Source: Camelus ferus (Eukaryota). Taken from it: DNA of 64,000 nucleotides. This document shows positions 25,801-41,800 of the stretch, piece after piece. The position numbers and the translations under genes are program-made. Each line of letters starts with the position of its first letter. Within the stretch, counting starts at the first letter, position 1. The notes below the pieces were generated by a model. That model ran no database searches. It was not told the DNA's origin and was given only the letters and a program-made list of their open reading frames with translations. The stretch spans positions 70,682,001-70,746,000 of the forward strand of contig NC_045696.1 in assembly GCF_009834535.1 (NCBI RefSeq), read 5' to 3'.

Positions 25801-28800
25801 TCCTATCCTGTCTCCTGCTCTCAGTCCCTGCCCCACCCAACCTGTCTTCCAAGCCCCCACCACCCTTCTTGAAATATACCTAATTATTTTATTCCTAGGA
25901 TCAAAACATTTTATCCAAAATCAATACTTCTCAAACTTTCCTGCTGAAGTGCATCAACAGCAGACAAAAGAAATGCCTTCAGTCCCCCCAAGGGACCGCA
26001 CAGCCTGAAGCTCCTGCCAGCACACCCAAGCTCTCTTTGAAGTCTTCTGTTTTCTCTTAAAAATTCATGAGGATTTTGCATTCTATTCCATGATATATCT
26101 GAATTTCTTTTAATATGAAGATGTTTAAAATTATTCACCTCAAGGAAAATTGATGCTCCTGAAAGAAATACTGTGTTTATCCCAGGGCTCAAATATCCTC
26201 CTTGGAGAAGTACCTATAGCATAAAATCCAAACTCCTGACAGGCAAGGGTCTATAAAACTTGGCCCCCACAAACCTTCCTGCCTTCCTCCCACTACTCCT
26301 CTGCATGCTCTCCAGACACTGGGCCACCGGGACTCCTGTCATGCCCTGATTTGCCGGGTTCTTCCCAGCCCCTGCATTTTTGCTCAGGCTCTTCCTTCCT
26401 GTGGGTCCCACTCTCTACCTGCTGACAAGCTACCATCCCCAAAGGCCTCAAGGGGAATCAAATACCACCTTCCACGTGAAACCTCCTCTGATGGCCCCTG
26501 ACAGATACAACGTGAGAGGAAGCATGATGCTGTGAAAGCAGCCTGTACTTTGGGATCAGAAGGCCAGCGTTCAAATCCTGGCTCCCAACCCTTGATCCAG
26601 GACAAATGAGCTAAATTCTCTTACAGCTCATTGGTGAAATGGGGAATGCTTCCCTCACAGGGCTGTTTTAGGGATTAAGTAAGATTCAGGCAACAGCATA
26701 GTGCCCAGTATGCACTCCCTTCCTCTCCTCCAAACTCCCATAACCTTCTTTGAACCACTCATGTAAAGAGCATGTGTTCACACAGGCATGCTTTTTTATA
26801 ATGGCTTATTTCCCCCAAATAGATCAGTGGTTCCCAATGTCCCAGAGAAGCTTCTTGTATTATCCCCAAGAGCCCATGGCTTGAAAGACGTGGGTTATTA
26901 AATCAAACGCATTTATGGAAGAACACCCCACTTTTCTAAGTTCTCTAGCCTATGAAGCTTTCTGAGCACTGAGACTGCTCCCAGGCTCTCTCCTGCCTCA
27001 CTTTAGGGGCTCAGAGTCCAGAGCCACCCACAGAGACCATAAACACCTTGAGACTGCAGCTCTGTCTCCACACTTCCCTAGCACCTTACTCAGAGCCTCA
27101 CTCTAAGAACACACCTAGTAACTGCTTGTGGCATAAACAAAACGTTTCACCCAGATGATGAGGGGGGGACCCTGTCTAAACTAGCCAGTCGGTGTGCAGA
27201 AAGGGGGCATTGTTATGGGACGCAGCCCTGGAGGCGAGCCCTTCCCCTCCCACTCACCCAGGGCAGCACCCCCAGTTCCACCAGCTGGCCTCCAACTTCA
27301 GTGTGTGAGCCGATTAAAAAGCGCCCTCTCTTCAGTGTCTGGAAACTCCTGCAAGGAAAGTTTGCTGCCCAAAGTTGGCTTTTGACTAGAGTCTTAATAA
27401 GAGGCCTCAGCAGGCTGTGGCTGGAGAGACAATGTCACTTAGAGGAGCAGCTTGAAGCGGCAGTTAGGAGAAGAATTATTTTAATGAATACATTTCCTTT
27501 CAATTGTATGGGAATATCAAGATCCCATTAGAATAGGGAAGCAATTAGAACTAATAAAGATGAATGCACAGTGCTCGGTGCGTGCGGAATAACAAGCAGC
27601 CAACAAAGGGACTCCGGAGAGCCTGCTCTAATCCAAGTGAACTGGCGGCCAGCGAAGGGGAAACGGCTCTGTTCAGCTGCTCAAAGGCCCTGTGTCCCAC
27701 GCATTCTGGTCACGGCCAGCGAATGGCGTGAGTTGGGCCTCAGAGGTGGGGGTAGAGGGGCCCCCGTCCTGGACTGGCCCGGCCTCTGGGGGATAGAGAT
27801 GGGCTGTTGGCAGCCCCTGGGCGACGGCCATTCAGACCAGGGCCCTGGATGCTCGCCAGCCTCGCGCCTGCCCTTCGCACTGGGCCTCATTGTGTCCAGG
27901 TGGCAAATGCCTTCTCGCCAACTCTCCTTCGAGGTTTAGGGAGCGGGTGGGACAGTGGAGGGGAGGCGGGAGAAGGGGGCCCCGTGCCCCCTGCATGTCT
28001 CCCCTCCCCCGCCGGCCATGGTCTGTTCCTCCTCTGGGCCGGGTGTTATGTTACAGACACTGGTGGGACACAGGCAGCCAAACACAGAAGTACTGTTGCT
28101 TACACAATTGCTCTTCAAACAGTAACAAACAATTTTCATTACCCAAGTCAGATCGAATCATCCGCCTGGCCATCCTGCCTCAATACCAGCCACACATACA
28201 GGACCCACGGCTTCACACTCTGCCCATTCTGCTATGACAAAACTGGGCTCCATTTTGCCCCTGGCCCAGCGATACAGGACAAAGCTCTTCCTCTGATCCC
28301 TTCTTTGAGCCAGCTCAGCTGCATGGCTGTCAAAACTGTCAGGAGAAATAGAGAAGATGCAAGCACCTTCGCAGTTTGGGGCTCATTCAGACCTGGGGTG
28401 AGACATTACTCAGCATCCATGTGAAGAAAGCACTCAGGAGTTTGGAGGACTCTATTGACAAGTTTAGAAGGAATCCAACAAGATAACCCTGGCTCCCCAC
28501 CAAAGCATTCACTAGCCTTAGACGGAATGTCAGGGCTTGACGTTTCTCTATTTAATCTTTTTTGGCCAGACAGTTTTTTCAGCCAGGAATTTGTAAGCTC
28601 ATTCCAAAATGTCTGCTTGAGAGGCCAGTCACACTCATTACTGAGACTTTCTACTGGGTCTGTTAAAAAAAAAAGGCCTGTAACATTTTATATTTGTTTC
28701 TTAATGGTAGAGCATTTTAAATGTATGTTTATATTTATAATCTTACTTGAACCTCAAAATAACTGTGGGGACTGTCAAAGTTAAGGTTGTCAGACAAAAA

Positions 28801-31731: not shown

Positions 31732-32399
31732 GTGACAGATAGGCAGAGGGATAAAGTTCAGAATAGAGTCAGCAAAAAGAAAAAAAAATAGGAGCGGTTA
31801 AGTTTGAATAGGTTTTAAAAAAGATTCCTTTCCTCCAATCAGTTACTATTTCTGCCAGCTGTACTTCAGTATATCGTTTATCATCTTCCTTTCACGAACC
31901 CTGTGGAATCTGCTATCCTTAACCCCTCATTAGTCATTTTATAACATTTATGTAGCGCCTCTATGTGCCAGGCACTGTTCTAGGCACCTGGGATACACCA
32001 ATGAACAAGACAGGCCAAGTCTCAGTTCCTATTCTGCTCTACAATAGTACTCCAATACTCGAAGCCGGATTCCCAGCTTTTCGTCAGCCCTACTCTGAGC
32101 CATCCTCCACACTGAAACCAGAGAGACTGGAAAGTTACAGATCTGGTCCTGGTACTCCTTGCTTAAATCCCCCTGTAGTATATTCCCATCGTGTACAGAT
32201 AATTTCAGTCGCCCTAGCATCCTATTCACCGCCTTTCACTAATTGTCCCGCACAGCTTTACCGCCCACCTTAACCTCCACGCACTCTGCACTTGACTCAC
32301 AGTAAATCAGTCTTTGATACACACACGTGGAAATAGGCACCTGCTGAAAGGACACGGCTAGAATTCCATCCTTATTTCATCTGTACATTGAAACCTTGA

Positions 32400-33260
32400 G
32401 AAAGCCCTGGTTACCGCCCCCTCTCCAAGCAGCGAGTCTAAACAGCAGCGCTGCCTGCGCGCTCCCCCGCAGCCCCGGCATCCTGAGAAGCCTGTGCGCA
32501 CTCCCAACCCAGCGGGGGCTGGAAGAGGAGGGGCTTCGCGCGGCCTCGGGGCCGCCATTTTGGCTGAGTTGGCCGGAAGTGGTCCAGCTAGTCGGCTCGC
32601 GGGCGCGCACTGAGGCTGCGCGGTGGCCGCGCCGCAGGTCTTCGGCGCCGGCAGCTTCGGGGCAACCGTCCCGAGCCCTATGCGGCGTCGCCCAGCAGCC
32701 ACAAAAGCCCCTTCTGCCATCTCTCCTAGCCCTACTCCAGCCTCCCCAGCCGCTGTCCAACCCCTCCGCCGGGGTTTGTGCAGCGGCTCGCACAACCCTC
32801 GGCCCGTGTACGCGCTTTGCACCTGCCTGCCCGAAAACATGCTGCCGAAACCCGAGACCGAGGGTCTCCCCATCCTTCAGACCGAGGGGGAGGATAGCGG
32901 CCTTGACGGTGAGACCCAGACCCTGACCGCCTCGCAGGAGGAGGCCCCGAGCTCCCTCCTGCAGGGCAGCCCCAGGGGGATCTTGGCGCCGCAAGGGAGG
33001 AGGGGGCTGCAGATCCCGCCCTCACCCCCGAAAGCTGGTAGGGCCTTGGCAGCCAAAACCTTGGCCCGGCGCAGGGTCCGCCGCCGTGTGGATCAGACGG
33101 TGGCCGAGTTGGTGCAGTTTCTGCTGGTGAAGGACTAGAAGAGTCCCATCACTCGCTCCGAGGTGGTGAAACATGTTATAGGAGACTTGAAGGATCTGTT
33201 CCCTGAGATTATCGCAAGGGCCGCAGAGAGTCTGCGGCATGTCTTTGGTTTCGAGCTGAA
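32400..33260. promoter_or_regulatory. CpG island / promoter of the MAGEF1 locus
   Basis: Abrupt rise in GC and CpG density relative to CpG-depleted flanks. YY1 motif GCCGCCATTTTGG at 32551-32563, ETS/GABPA motif CCGGAAGT at 32573-32580, NRF1-like TGCGCA/GCGCGCA near 32495 and 32603. Confidence 0.8.
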
Positions 33261-33761
33261 ACAGCTTGACTGTAAGCACCACACTTACATCCTGAACAAC
33301 AAACTAAAACCTCTTGAGGAGGAGGATTTGGGAGGAGATGGCCCCAGATCTAAATGATGATCTTGGGCCTTATCTACATGAAAGGTAATAGCGCCAGGGA
33401 GGCACAGGTCTGGGAGATGCTGCGTCTGTTGGGGGTGCGTCCCTCAAAGTATCACTTCTTCTCTGGGTATCCGAAGAGGCTTAATAATAAGACTTCGTGC
33501 AGCTGAGATACCTCAGTTACAGGCGTTATGCCTTACACCAATCCACCGGAATGTGAATTCTCCTGAGGTCCCGGAAGCAACCTGGAAACCAGCAAAGTGA
33601 AAGTCTTGGGGTTCCTGCCCAAGCTCCATAAGAAAGAACCCCACCACTGGCCAGTGCAGTACCGTGAGGCCCTGGCAGACGATGCTGACAGAGCCAGAGC
33701 TGAGGCCACAGTGAGGGCGAGGACTAGGTCCAGTGCTAGGGCCGGCACCCACCCCTGGTGA
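32839..33761 (+). pseudogene. MAGEF1: MAGE family member F1 pseudogene (single exon, disabled)
   Basis: Translation across frames gives MLPKPETEGLP...ASQEE..., RALAAKTLARRRVRRRVDQTVAELVQFLLVKD*KSPITRSEVVKHVIGDLKDLFPEIIARAAESLRHVFGFELKQLDCKHHTYILNNKLKPLEEEDLGGDGPR / MMILGLIYMKGNSAREAQVWEMLRLLGVRPSKYHFFSGYPKRL / DFVQLRYLSYRR / [57 protein letters not shown]...ARAGTHPW*. This is collinear end to end with human MAGEF1 as recalled. Lesions: TAG 33136-33138, TGA 33564-33566, indels near 32975, 33027, 33350, 33487 and 33527. Confidence 0.95.
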
Positions 33762-34239
33762 GGGCTGATGGAAGAGTGGCCAGCCAGAGGGGGTCGGGGT
33801 GAGTAGGTATAAAAGCTACTGAGTCGTAAGTAGAATAGGTGCGGGGAGGGTCATTATTTCTGTAGCAGTTGCATTTCTGTAACTAGGATTTAGGGTTTGT
33901 GTCTTGCTACGTTTTGTTACATTTAGTATACTGTTAAATTGATGTTTATAAATGAGATTGGTCTACATTTTCCTGTAGGATTTTTTTTGTAGAGTTTTGC
34001 TGGTTTTGTAAAATGAAATGAAAAACTTTACATTTTATTCTGTGATCTTGGACAAATTATGCAGCATTGAATGCTGCACATTAATCATTTGAAGGAACTC
34101 AGCAATGTGATGATCTGGTACTGGGAAAAAATAGCTGATTAGTATCCAGCTTCCCAACACTTTTTGTCTATTGTATAAAGAAAAAAGATTGAATGTAACT
34201 CTGTTTGCTTAGTTACTATAGTATCTAGGGGGAAAATGC

Positions 34240-34245
34240 AATAAA
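34240..34245 (+). terminator. Polyadenylation signal ending the MAGEF1 3' UTR
   Basis: AATAAA at the end of a ~480 nt T-rich UTR-like stretch after the ancestral stop codon; repeat (L2-like) sequence resumes ~25 nt later. Confidence 0.6.
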
Positions 34246-37200
34246 TTAAAAGAATAACCTGGTATACCTAGTAAACGTTTGTTAAGCATCTTCTTTTGTG
34301 TGATGTACTATTGGGGGTATTTGGGGATAGAATGCTGAACGAGATAAAGGTCCTACTTTTCAGAACTGGACAGTAAGTAAATAAACCAGAAATTAGGGTG
34401 CTGTGAGTTGAAGGCTACAGAGGGACACCCAACCCCACTGCGGTGAATAGGTGAGACTTGTCTGAGGTTACCTTTTGTCAGACTTGGGGGTAGGGAGGGG
34501 GAAATGGCAGGGTGGGTAGAGCAGAGGGGAATGAGAAGAGGAAGAAGTTGGGGGTGGGAGATGGTATTAAAAATGACTTAAGATCATAGATGCTCCTCAG
34601 TAACATGGGAAGACGTGATACGTGGCAGATCTGGAAAACACCCTACCCTTGCCAGTACGTTTGTTCCAGGGCTATTTATCACAGTGCACAAATAGTGATG
34701 GGGTCTGTTAGCATTTTGGTCCTCTCCATCTCCCTTCTCTCAGTCTATGCGGAGACCAAATATTTTACTAATTCTGGAACAGTATGTAGTGTGGGTGGAG
34801 GGTACATGTGATGTTCCCTACCACCAAGAAGCTCTGCTTCAAGATCTCTCCCTTGGCACCAGGAAGCCCAGCATCCTCATTCGTGTTTCTGCTTGTGCTT
34901 TCTACCCACTGTCTCTCATTTGGAGAACTGTAAGGCATCCCACATTCTTAACTACCCATGAAAAGGCATCTACGTATGCAGCTAAAACCTCTGCAGTGCC
35001 TACCACCTCCACACGGGGGATAGATCCTGTAGAATGGGTACACAGAATATTAAGGAACCTATAGGAGTGGTGGTGACCAAACCAAAGAGGAGTATAGAGG
35101 GGACTGTGAAACTGTCTCCCCGTAGCTGCCATACACAGAAGAGCCACTTTCTTCCCTTTATTGGTAGCTTTTTTCCTGCTCTCAGTTGTGTCTGAATAAC
35201 ATTTCTGAGTCTGTTAAGGTTAGTGTGGAATATGAATACTCTAGGACACAGGCCCAGGGATCCAACAAATCAGACTGAGATCAAAAGCTATAAGCTTATA
35301 GGTAAAAAAAAAGTTGACTAATGATTAAAAATACGACTTCTGAGCAGTTTATAATTCATTAAACAAAAATACTGAGTGCCTGCTACATGCCAAGGACTTT
35401 GCTGGGTTCCAAAGATTAAGATGTAAAAACCAGCTTTGCCCTCAAGAAGCAATAGTGATAATTTCTTACATTTGTATTTTCTCACAGCTGCTGAGAAGTC
35501 AGCAGCATGTGCACCTGAGAATCTGATTTCCTGGTGATTTGCCTATGGTCACCTGGCAAAAGACAGTACTAAGGCTAGAACCCGAGTCCTTTGCCTCCCA
35601 ATCCAATGTGTTTCATTCTAGTACATTGTTCCCTGCATCTGGCTTCCAGTATATTATGTGTGATTTTATTTATCACAATTCCAAAAGTCAAGCGAGGCAT
35701 GTGTAATTATCCCCAGTTGCCACTGCAGTCCTTATGGGATTGAGCAGAGTAGAAAAACTCCCCATTTCATTGGCAGCAGAAGTGGCTTTTCTTAAGGTCA
35801 GACATACAGTAACATATAGTTCATGGCAAGTGAGACTAACAACTACCATTTCTTAAACATCTGCTATAGGCCAAAGGCATTTTCCCCCTACTTTTCATAA
35901 CCACATTGCAAAGTGGGTATTATGAAGGCACCTCCATTTTACAGATATTAATACTTGCCATTTATTCAATACCTAAGCTTTTTATGCTTTACATAAGTTT
36001 TAATGATTTTTTACAAGAATCAAGCAGGATAGATATTATCGGTTCCATTTTGAACTATGCAAACTGAAACTCGGAGAAGCTGTAAAGTTCTGGTAGATAG
36101 TGTATGACATAACAAGGATTGGAACTGAAGTCTGACCGAGTCAAAATCCCACATTGTTCACTATTTTACATTTCCTTCTTCTTGGGACTCCTTTCAGACG
36201 TGGGGCCTCATGTTCTTTCTTCCAAACATGGCTCTCTCTCTGGAGATACAGACAAGGGTCGTGTAGCCAAGGTAACTATGACAGACACTGGCCTGCAGGA
36301 GGGTAAAAAGGAGGCTAAAGTCAAGTTGGAGAATTATCTGTGAACATTGGTCCCGGCTCTGCTCACCCCCCCGTGTTCTCAGACTGCTGACTACGTGGGG
36401 AATGTATATTTTCGCTCAAACTCAGCATGTTTTGCCCCTAGAGGCCATGTTTCCTCAGTCTTCTTTAGTCTGCTCTCTCCACTAAGCCTCAAGTCTTTCA
36501 TGCCAGGGAACAATCAAATAACATTTGTGGCCCTGCAAATACGATTCCCAGTGTTGTTTCCAGATGGCACAAAGGGCTGGCAGAACTCGTACCCTTGCCT
36601 CAGGATGAAAGACCTTCTGTGTCACACATGCCACCATCAACTTCTCAGAGTATTAAAAGTGTGGCCTCTGGACCCATGTGTAGAGCAGACATTGGCCACG
36701 GTAAGGGCAAGAGATGGATTCTCCTGTTGCTTAGGGTCATTCAGATGAGGGAGGAAGAAGGCCTGGATCCCTGGTCTCCTTCCCCTCCAGACACAAACAG
36801 AAGTAGATCTTCCCTCTGAACCACTGTGGGTGCGAGAGAAGAGGGATGTTGTTGGGACAGTGGTGGCAGATGATGACTCCAAGTCATACTTCCTCTGCTA
36901 CAACTAGGAAGCAAAGCCAGTGAAGGAAACGCCCTTGGAAACTAGGAATCTGGCCTTAGACAATGGGAAGGTCTCAGTTCAGCTGCAGACTCTGCAGGGA
37001 TCTTGATATTCACCAGAGTCGGCACTTTTGACCCACTGGAACTTGGAGAATGGGTGTTTGGAAACAGGCTCAGGTTGATTACAGCCCCAACATCTAGGAG
37101 ACACATAGTGCTCCAGAGGGGGCAGCTCATTTGCAGCCCCTGTAAATCAGGCCTCAATTCACAAGCTCAATCACAGTTTCCTTTTGAGATAATTATGCTT

Positions 37201-38830: not shown

Positions 38831-41800
38831 AACAAGCCAGGTGGGTTCTGAGAAGTAGCCCCTGCAAGCAGAGTGAGCTGAGAGGGAGGAAGGAGACGTG
38901 TTCCCTCTCCTGAAGGAGCCTGCACAGCTGGCACAAGTACCCAAAACGAGAAATACACACGGATCTGCACCCAAGAGTTACCGTAGTAGTTGAGCGGGGG
39001 GAGAAACCACAACAGCCTTAGGCAGCACAGAGGCTTCTGCTGCGCCCAGAGGGGAAGAAAAGAGAAAATATTCATTATTCATAGCTTTTGTTTTCCAATT
39101 ACAAATGCCTATAGTAGAAAATTTGGAGAGGTCCATGAAAATATAAAGAAGAAAATGAATTCTCTAGAATACTGGCACCCAGAGGCAACCATGGTTAGCA
39201 GTGTAGTATGGTTTTATATCCGTCACTAGTATATTTAGTTTTCACCCATCAAGGGAATAATGATTTGTTGCTACTTTAACAATGAGTTACAATGACACTG
39301 AGCCTCACTCCATGCAATATTTCCCTCTAATACTTCTGGGAGCTCCCAATGGGGCATCTCAAATGATGTCACAAACCCATCTATCCACAGCAGTCACCAG
39401 GCGGGGCTCGAGGAGGCCTGGGAAAGGAGCTTCTACTGCAGATGGTCCTTGTGGGGTCCTCAGCATCCATGAATGCTGCCTCCTCTGATGCCCCCAGTGT
39501 TCTAGACGGGGGCGGTGGTTCTGTGCAGAGATGAACAGAGTGTCCTTCTCCCGAGCTCTGCGTCAAGAAACATCACCTGGGTCCCAAAGCAGCAGTGCCA
39601 GGGCCTCTCCAGCCTCCTCAGGAAGCCTGCTTGACTCTGCTTGTGATTTCTTGCAAGCAACTCTCCAAACTTCAGCTGCAAATAGTCACCTTCACAAGGA
39701 CCAGTCCAGGCTCCCTTCCTCCACAACTCTTTTCCTCATACCTTAGGGGAAAAAGAGACCAAAAGGCAGTCCCTGTCTCCCAAGACATGGCTATTTACAC
39801 CGCTGAACTAGAACGGTGAACATGTGCATTCATGCTGACAGTGATGACACAGTTTTAGATTGGTGCTAATTTTCCCAAAACAAAGCAAAAGTCTGCCCCA
39901 AAGTTGAACTGAATCCTCCTCCTCTAGCAAACCGCTAGCAACTATAGCTCCCTTCCCCCAACCTTTCCTACCATCATGTTTTCAAAAGCTTATGGTGCAT
40001 CTTAGCCAGGGATGTTATATACTGTGAGAGATGGCTAGAATTTAGGTACAAGGTTGGAATGGAGGGAAGGATTCTAGGTAAGGGAAACCACTTCAGCAAA
40101 GGTCAGGTAGCAGGAGTGTGCAGTGTCCCGGGAAACATGAGGGGACTGGTTAGGTTAGAGCAGAGTTTGTGGAGAAGAGGAGAGGGTGCTGAGAATGGAG
40201 AGAGAACAGCTAGGGGTAGTGGCTGAGGGAGAGTGATGAACACATGGACGGTGGACTGGCTGGTTGTGAAAGGGGAGGCTGGAGGCAGGGAGGCCACATG
40301 GGAGACTGTGCCACTCCAAACTGGAGTCAATGACAGCCTGACCAAAGGAGTGGTGCAGCAGGAATGGGGGTGAGAAAGGACTGGTTGGGGGAATAACTTG
40401 AAATGATTTGGTAATTGGTCAGCTATGGGGCATGTGAGGTATGACTCAGCAACTTCAAGCTGGCGTGTCTGGAAGAATGCTGGCGTCACTCATTAGAACA
40501 GCCGGGTGTACAGGGGGAGCCGGTTTGTGGTCAAAGAGATGGATATGTCATCAGTCATACTGAGTCTCAGTTGCTGAGTTGAAAGTCCCATGAACTCTTA
40601 GAACTGGAGGGATGCTGAGGTATCAGAGTCTGAGTCCTTTTCTTCGAGGACATAGCCAAAACCATGGACTTTCTCCTTGGGAGAGAGTCTAGGGGGAAGA
40701 GAGCAGGAACCTGACCCATCTCTCTTCTTGCTACAAGCAATGATCTTGGCAGTCACAAGCAGATTACACGGAAATGCAGTCCTGCCCACATAGTTGCCTT
40801 CTGGGTCCATCTTCTGAACTTACTTCTACAAATGATCTGGGGGTTAAGAAGAAGGTCTAGGGAGCAGCATGGCCAGGGAGTCATGGAACTGGGAAAAGAA
40901 AAGTGGCAAGTTGTTATAGGTGAGTGTAAGCTAAGGGGTGGCCAAGATTCTTTGTGTGCACTAAAAAGAGAACTGCAAACACACAATCACACTGCAGCTG
41001 GAAGGACTCAGGACAGAGCTAAGCCAAGGCTTAAATGGGCCAACCCATGGGATTCCAAACTTAGAGCCTTTCTCTCCCCACTTTATAATAGACCTTCTGT
41101 CTTGGAATGGAACTTTCCAGGCAACACCTCACGTTTGATCAGACCTGAGATATCTGCACTGTGCAGGACACATCCCAAGATGGGGAGGTTCTCACTCAGG
41201 GAGAATCTACACTTTCAACCTCTTGGGCACACAGAACATGTTGCCCAGATGCAAATGCACACTTGGTATACACACACAGAAATATCTCCTCCAACTCCAC
41301 AGGAGACACTAAGAAAAAATGTCATTTGGCAGCTATCATATACCAGGTAATTTGCATGGAGTGTTCCAAATATTTTTACATTTAGGCTCATAACAATTGT
41401 GAGAGAAAGGAATCATTTTCCCATTTTTTAAAAAAAACAAGGCTCAGAAAAGTTAACTATTTTTCCCAGGATCACGCGCCTAGAAAATGGCAGATGATGC
41501 CTGACCCAGATCTGCCTGTGCACTCACGTGTTACTATTCTTCTTTCTTCACATATGTGTGCACCCTAGACTTACACACACAAACATATCCAGCCCCTCTA
41601 CACACACAAAATCCCCGTAGAAAGTAACCTCCTTGAGGGCAAGGATTTCATTTTGTTCATTGATAAATCCCAGGCCTCTAGAACAGTGTCTGGCACATAG
41701 TACACAATCAGTAAATATTTTGTGATTGTCATTAATGAACTGAATGAGTACACATGCATGCAACACTCACCTGTGTACATGTACATCTATACATACATGC

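Follow-up and report, generated by a model that had tools for sequence, protein, structure and literature searches.

The 64,000-nucleotide stretch of DNA analysed here (the window) very probably carries the ancestral MAGEF1 locus of an Old World Camelus in the form of a unitary pseudogene, one that was inactivated long ago and has been decaying neutrally since, with a CpG-island promoter and a poly(A) signal still in place. A preliminary description made from the sequence alone had proposed a unitary loss of MAGEF1, and for Camelus this proposal is supported by the flanks, by a long branch within the cetartiodactyl clade, by a dromedary protein with the same stop, and by the retrieval of no closer intact protein. 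Orthologue alignments, sequencing runs, the dromedary record and the flanks all place fixed disabling lesions at the ancestral locus.

The MAGEF1 frame and its lesions

Frameshift-aware alignment with the intact MAGEF1 proteins of pig, cattle, hippo, peccary and human (n = 5) gave 79–82% identity over 292–301 aligned codons, and pig MAGEF1 is ~81% identical to the camel read-through; judged from these alignments, identity at this level over ~300 aligned codons is far beyond chance. The camel frame is collinear with its orthologues over 923 nt and holds no intron, so that it is single-exon, and all five alignments put its natural stop at 33759–33761. Pfam MAGE matches fall on two camel pieces, at 33139–33354 (E 5e-9) and, below the cut-off, at 33357–33503 (E 0.008). 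The frame, its lesions and the residual reading frame are as follows.

32839..33761, + strand: disabled MAGEF1 frame in a single exon, from the ATG to the natural stop (five orthologue alignments; tree)
32974..32978, + strand: −1 frameshift, placed at 32977 against four of five orthologues and at 32965 against cattle
33024..33036, + strand: +1 frameshift, probably inside the C run 33025–33029
33136..33138, + strand: premature TAG replacing Lys in a KKK run (human K92/K93); five of five alignments
33349..33353, + strand: net −7 nt indel removing LGLL, with 5 nt where L-G-L-L needs 12; five of five orthologues
33483..33530, + strand: −1 (~33489) and +1 (33527–33530) pair with a TGA at 33504 between them; five of five alignments, ORF frames
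33564..33566, + strand: TGA replacing an invariant Trp (human W241); five of five alignments
32839..33138, + strand: residual 99-codon ORF

Together these amount to seven frame-breaking lesions, two nonsense changes and five frameshifts; one of the three Lys codons at the TAG has also been lost, and one codon near residue 19 is deleted. Five of the lesions had been named beforehand, as a TAG for Lys at 33136, a net loss of 7 nt that takes out LGLL (~33349–33353), a −1/+1 pair with a TGA between its members, and a TGG to TGA change at 33564. Each is present in all five orthologue alignments, but the list was incomplete, having missed the first −1/+1 pair, the loss of the Lys codon and the deletion near residue 19.

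The residual frame ends as had been described, after 99 codons and three residues beyond VQFLL: VKD follows the LL, and then the TAG. The first −1/+1 pair puts ~17 of the 99 residues in the wrong frame. The claim that nearly the whole MAGE domain is lost also holds, since the Pfam domain spans pig residues 92–259 and the camel peptide ends at pig 100, keeping about 9 of 168 domain residues; a Pfam scan of the 99-residue peptide found no domain. The peptide retains the dileucine at human 87–88, which we take to be the ligase-binding one. It lacks a complete WH-A/WH-B domain with its substrate cleft, the stop (at the equivalent of human K93) preceding the equivalents of F129, L196 and W269, all of which lie 3′ of the TAG and are still readable in the DNA. 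As read from its sequence, the locus can yield no working adaptor, and the 99-residue camel 'MAGEF1' protein in GenBank is a pseudogene remnant.

That protein, dromedary KAB1283631.1 (99 aa), comes from a separate assembly and has the same end and the same shifted stretch, with 97 of 99 residues identical. The match identifies the window as a Camelus and makes three of the lesions older than the split of these two alleles. The same end as in the camel peptide is seen in a Logan protein, which occurs on 5 contigs, the longest of them 1741 nt. Among the 24 runs listed for 32560–34280, 14 contain all 169 sampled words; seven of the 14 are flagged as a possible source of the DNA and seven, from three studies, are unflagged. 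Sampling of this kind would miss a point lesion with p about 0.04, and it records word sharing rather than read pile-ups. Four runs recorded as RNA (two studies), and a fifth presumed to be RNA, hold 97–99% of the words, in contigs that may contain the stretch as DNA and that give neither strand nor level, and we regard camel MAGEF1 as probably a transcribed pseudogene. Four listed runs have almost none of the words, and in an RNA run, X20, the share is 0.34; it could be a relative or a partial contig, and it is no evidence either way.

These data bear on two readings in which the gene is not simply dead. Errors of assembly or sequencing in a GC-rich gene could mimic decay; one +1 shift does sit in a C run, and the lesions are supported by word sharing plus a second assembly. 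Against this, two lesions are base substitutions, the separate dromedary assembly has the TAG and the first pair yet differs at two residues, the full set of sampled words recurs in 14 runs, and changes at conserved sites are also in excess, so that we put the chance of an artefact at next to nil. A repurposed locus, in which a peptide with a basic stretch and a dileucine, or the RNA, is functional and the first frameshift pair is frame-preserving, we consider highly unlikely. It would fit the retained promoter and poly(A) signal, the presence of the sequence in RNA runs, an upstream in-frame ATG that might extend the peptide, and the occurrence of two close compensating pairs, which has a p of about 0.045 under a simple post-hoc model. 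However, we saw no sign of constraint 5′ of the TAG, where 5 of 26 invariant positions are changed versus 10 of 110 after it (p 0.16); the two differences from dromedary fall within only 99 codons; the peptide carries no Pfam domain; and either member of the first pair alone leads, in the ORF frames, to an early stop, so that the pair is no smooth rescue. We therefore return to simple loss of the gene as the preferred reading.

Compensating pairs as frame rescue were considered separately and rejected, since a stop lies within the second pair and the first meets one whichever of its members arose earlier; we read both pairs, on their sequence, as probably due to chance. The upstream ATG, at 32680, is in frame with the 99-codon ORF and could yield a 152-residue product, and its context is weak.

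Ancestral locus, tree and search for an intact copy

The features that surround the frame are listed below.

27564..28092, + strand: upstream non-coding flank, matched at the tamandua MAGEF1 locus by the head of gene model P0110
32400..33140, no strand: CpG island spanning the promoter, the 5′ leader and the initial third of the frame (GC 0.69, CpG o/e 0.73)
32551..32581, + strand: YY1-like (32551) and ETS-like (32573) motifs, a probable housekeeping promoter (motif scan)
33762..34245, + strand: AT-rich 3′ UTR (GC 0.36) ending at an AATAAA (34240), from which the transcript end is deduced
34861..35070, + strand: downstream non-coding flank, matched at the grey whale MAGEF1 locus by the tail of gene model KAJ8793908.1 (E 6e-17)

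A CpG island and a 3′ UTR with neither poly(A) tract nor target-site duplication had been noted before, and our measurements agree. AATAAA signals stand at 34240 and 34380, no run of eight or more A occurs before 35304, and no target-site duplication was found, the longest word common to 32001–32620 and 34241–34700 being 9 nt. The promoter motifs presumably deserve their YY1-like and ETS-like names. DNA from about 32464 onward aligns, as translated non-coding sequence, with upstream extensions of the unnamed MAGEF1 proteins P0112 and P0146. More importantly, two automatic gene models from other mammals extend the similarity into both flanks. The grey whale match lies beyond the poly(A) signals, 1.1 kb downstream of the frame; the head of the tamandua model matches 27564–27668 (E 4e-10) and, weakly but in order, 28015–28092 (E 0.002). 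Since these flanks match tamandua and grey whale MAGEF1, the locus is the ancestral one rather than a retrocopy. The tamandua-matching segment, 5 kb upstream, lies in a locally GC-rich zone and is a candidate regulatory element in its own right.

EPHB3 and VPS8, which we take to be neighbours of MAGEF1 about 100 kb away in human, were not detected in the window by a Pfam scan of 266 frames, each read from stop to stop and 70 aa or longer, in which short exons could be missed. The scan, which left out the frames over the 5′ end of MAGEF1, returned the MAGE pieces and a single sub-threshold TMEM71 match (40756–40986, − strand, E 0.005), probably a chance result among 266 frames.

In a tree of 39 rows, into which the camel read-through was entered with X at its breaks, the MAGEF1 clade received support of 100/100 and a cetartiodactyl subclade that includes the camel 100/95, with NSMCE3 paralogues apart. 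The exact position of the camel among artiodactyls is weakly supported (90/75). Its terminal branch is 0.16 long, versus root-to-tip distances of about 0.05–0.08 in suids and ruminants. The best 100 of 103 matches to a lemur MAGEF1 query include no full-length camelid MAGEF1. No camelid is among the MAGEF1 cluster members listed, which come from pig, warthog, peccary, hippo, many ruminants, carnivores, primates and squirrels; at most 15 are listed of the 75, 54, 25 and 20 members of the four largest clusters. There were no alpaca or llama MAGEF1 fragments among 15 and 4 matches, and none of 572 pattern matches to metagenome contigs was confirmed as orthologous DNA.

Two kinds of copy must be set against loss of the gene itself. 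A processed retrocopy inserted at a new site would likewise be intronless, MAGEF1 being without introns in any case, so that intron absence cannot discriminate. Poly(A) tail, target-site duplication and foreign flanks are all missing, and the promoter-side DNA together with the flanks, from 5 kb upstream to ~0.6 kb past the poly(A) signal, matches the MAGEF1 loci of other mammals; the flanks have already largely refuted this reading, which we hold to be very improbable. A dead segmental duplicate, with a working MAGEF1 elsewhere in the camel genome, would carry flanks, CpG island and UTR just as the locus does, and our search covered protein collections, the large clusters through the members listed, and the 64-kb window rather than a whole genome. 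Within that scope, the absence of a full-length camelid protein is joined by two further results: the closest stored protein of more than 200 aa among those retrieved is merely 82.6% identical to the read-through, as any ruminant or pig would be, and a single named camel 'MAGEF1' protein was retrieved, the truncated one of 99 residues. The window itself holds no second copy, and we regard a duplicate as unlikely. The preferred reading thus remains a unitary pseudogene at the ancestral locus.

Decay, age and possible consequences

Of 122 core positions (human 76–277) that are invariant in 26 intact orthologues, 12 are changed in the camel. In whole-clade-out comparisons (Fisher tests of camel versus the most changed member of each clade), there is 1 change in the pig group, 2–3 in ruminants, 3 in hippo and 4 in colugo (p 0.001, 0.015, 0.015 and 0.013, respectively), versus 3–7 in carnivores, 3–8 in primates and 8 in squirrel (p 0.16, 0.26 and 0.36; not significant). 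The excess of conserved-site change therefore holds against artiodactyls and not against every mammal. Counting at least 14 changes over 286 non-synonymous sites, we arrive at 0.049 per site (95% 0.027–0.082), and neutral decay at that distance predicts 1.65 stops, versus 2 seen. From the translated flank (39 of 55 residues) we obtained a rough camel-plus-whale neutral distance near 0.15. A date built from these protein-level changes depends on the 55-codon flank calibration, with the camel assumed to carry half of the distance, and on a camel branch that we take to be about 60 million years long; the figures suggest that the death of MAGEF1 goes back over about half of that branch or more, some 20–40 million years.

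Old World and New World camelids split 16–17 million years ago. The accessible part of one source (PMC13751797) puts their separation at more than 11 million years, and with an age of 20–40 million years the loss would probably precede the alpaca split, so that alpaca and llama are predicted to share some of the lesions. The route to loss would most likely have been dispensability under relaxed selection.

According to the available portions of several reports, human MAGE-F1 recruits MMS19 to the NSE1 ligase (PMC8750328, PMC7529893, PMC8465902, bioRxiv 2020.06.08.139816), which agrees with the joint action of MAGEF1 and NSE1 on MMS19 stated in the preliminary description, and it binds EID1, EID2 and EID2b (PMC3045436). 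The sections at hand of PMC7529893 assign MMS19 binding to the cleft between WH-A and WH-B, with F129, L196 and W269 required, and state a role of the dileucine in MAGE ligase binding in general terms. In the camel, a single-exon transcript would largely escape junction-dependent decay, and ribosomes would make at most a partly scrambled peptide of 99 residues that ends in the first helix of the MAGE domain. Such a peptide could not form the MMS19-binding WH-A/WH-B cleft; it could not guide NSE1 to MMS19 as an adaptor, and MMS19 would not be turned over in this way. Camels may conceivably have a more stable MMS19 or a higher Fe-S flux, and the earlier suggestion that the species lacks a brake on the CIA pathway is an extrapolation from human cell work.

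NSMCE3 (MAGE-G1), the closest paralogue, also has a MAGE homology domain and, in the available text of PMC7529893, also binds NSE1. It is only about 47% identical to the camel pieces, falls in a separate clade and has distinct substrates, which makes it an unlikely stand-in for MAGEF1.

MAGEF1 loss in other mammals

Recurrent pseudogenisation of MAGE-F1 in mammals was reportedly described by Weon, Yang and Potts in 2018, and the cases reported there resemble the camel in involving the same gene and loss by stops and indels. Camel MAGEF1 is, by sequence, tree and flanks, the orthologue of functional MAGE-F1, a type II MAGE adaptor of the NSE1 ligase for MMS19, from which it differs in its seven frame-breaking lesions and in a product that stops at the start of the MAGE domain. 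In mouse, Magef1 is an expressed pseudogene according to the accessible part of PMC9290590; like the camel gene, it is a broken orthologue that is seemingly still transcribed, but it belongs to a separate lineage and event, and squirrels, pigs, hippo and ruminants, which lie between the two, are intact. This case and damaged database models bear out the earlier statement that MAGEF1 has been pseudogenised in some mammals. Models labelled 'LOW QUALITY' or truncated occur in several whales, bats, manatee, porcupine and tamandua, with break points other than those of the camel, several whales being shifted in a Glu run.

The camel loss is a further independent case of a known, recurrent loss, and it has possibly been tabulated already, in Weon 2018 or in large automated loss tables. 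Our search, which covered the open literature, found no report of it, and MAGEF1 is absent from the supplements (three files each) of the gene-loss papers PMC5865188 and PMC6760925. Alone it changes no concept; with it, the repeated losses of this regulator of cytosolic iron-sulfur assembly gain another independent example, one that carries a date. The nearest relatives, pig, peccary, hippo and ruminants, keep MAGEF1 intact, and camel versus pig or cattle offers a clean comparison for MMS19 level, DNA repair and iron handling. A bolder proposal, which we consider unlikely, is that the loss is unreported, old, camelid-wide and favoured by selection, making, with relaxation on the whale stem, two independent losses in Cetartiodactyla. 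If this were true, MMS19 in camel cells would stay higher or more stable and DNA-repair enzymes would be loaded with more Fe-S; whether loss of MAGEF1 is adaptive could then be tested directly in the camel/pig and whale/hippo pairs.

Comparison of seven whale proteins (P0032, P0209, P0194, P0200, P0199, P0009, P0211) yielded observations of their own. All four full-length models share R99L, V106I, G197E, K211R, P230S and E236A and a long stem (0.081). The Glu run is where the frame shifts in the narwhal and fin whale models; the Mesoplodon frame is open over 311 aa, with changes at 12 of 129 invariant sites. This pattern suggests relaxation on the stem followed by separate breaks. Since whale MAGEF1 has its own conserved-site changes and groups in the tree with intact hippo, its decay is separate from that of the camel.

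Elsewhere, the bat models P0035 and P0038 join MAGEF1 to a TACC-domain piece (PF05010) that has no match in the window. Black rhino is represented only by a 175-aa model (P0007), and no named horse MAGEF1 appears among the matches listed; judging from these sequences, perissodactyls may be another loss or may simply be unlisted. Among P0049, P0036 and P0037, which are from shrews and unnamed relatives, shrew MAGEF1 is full length and about 55–60% identical to lemur, a fast-evolving protein with an open frame.
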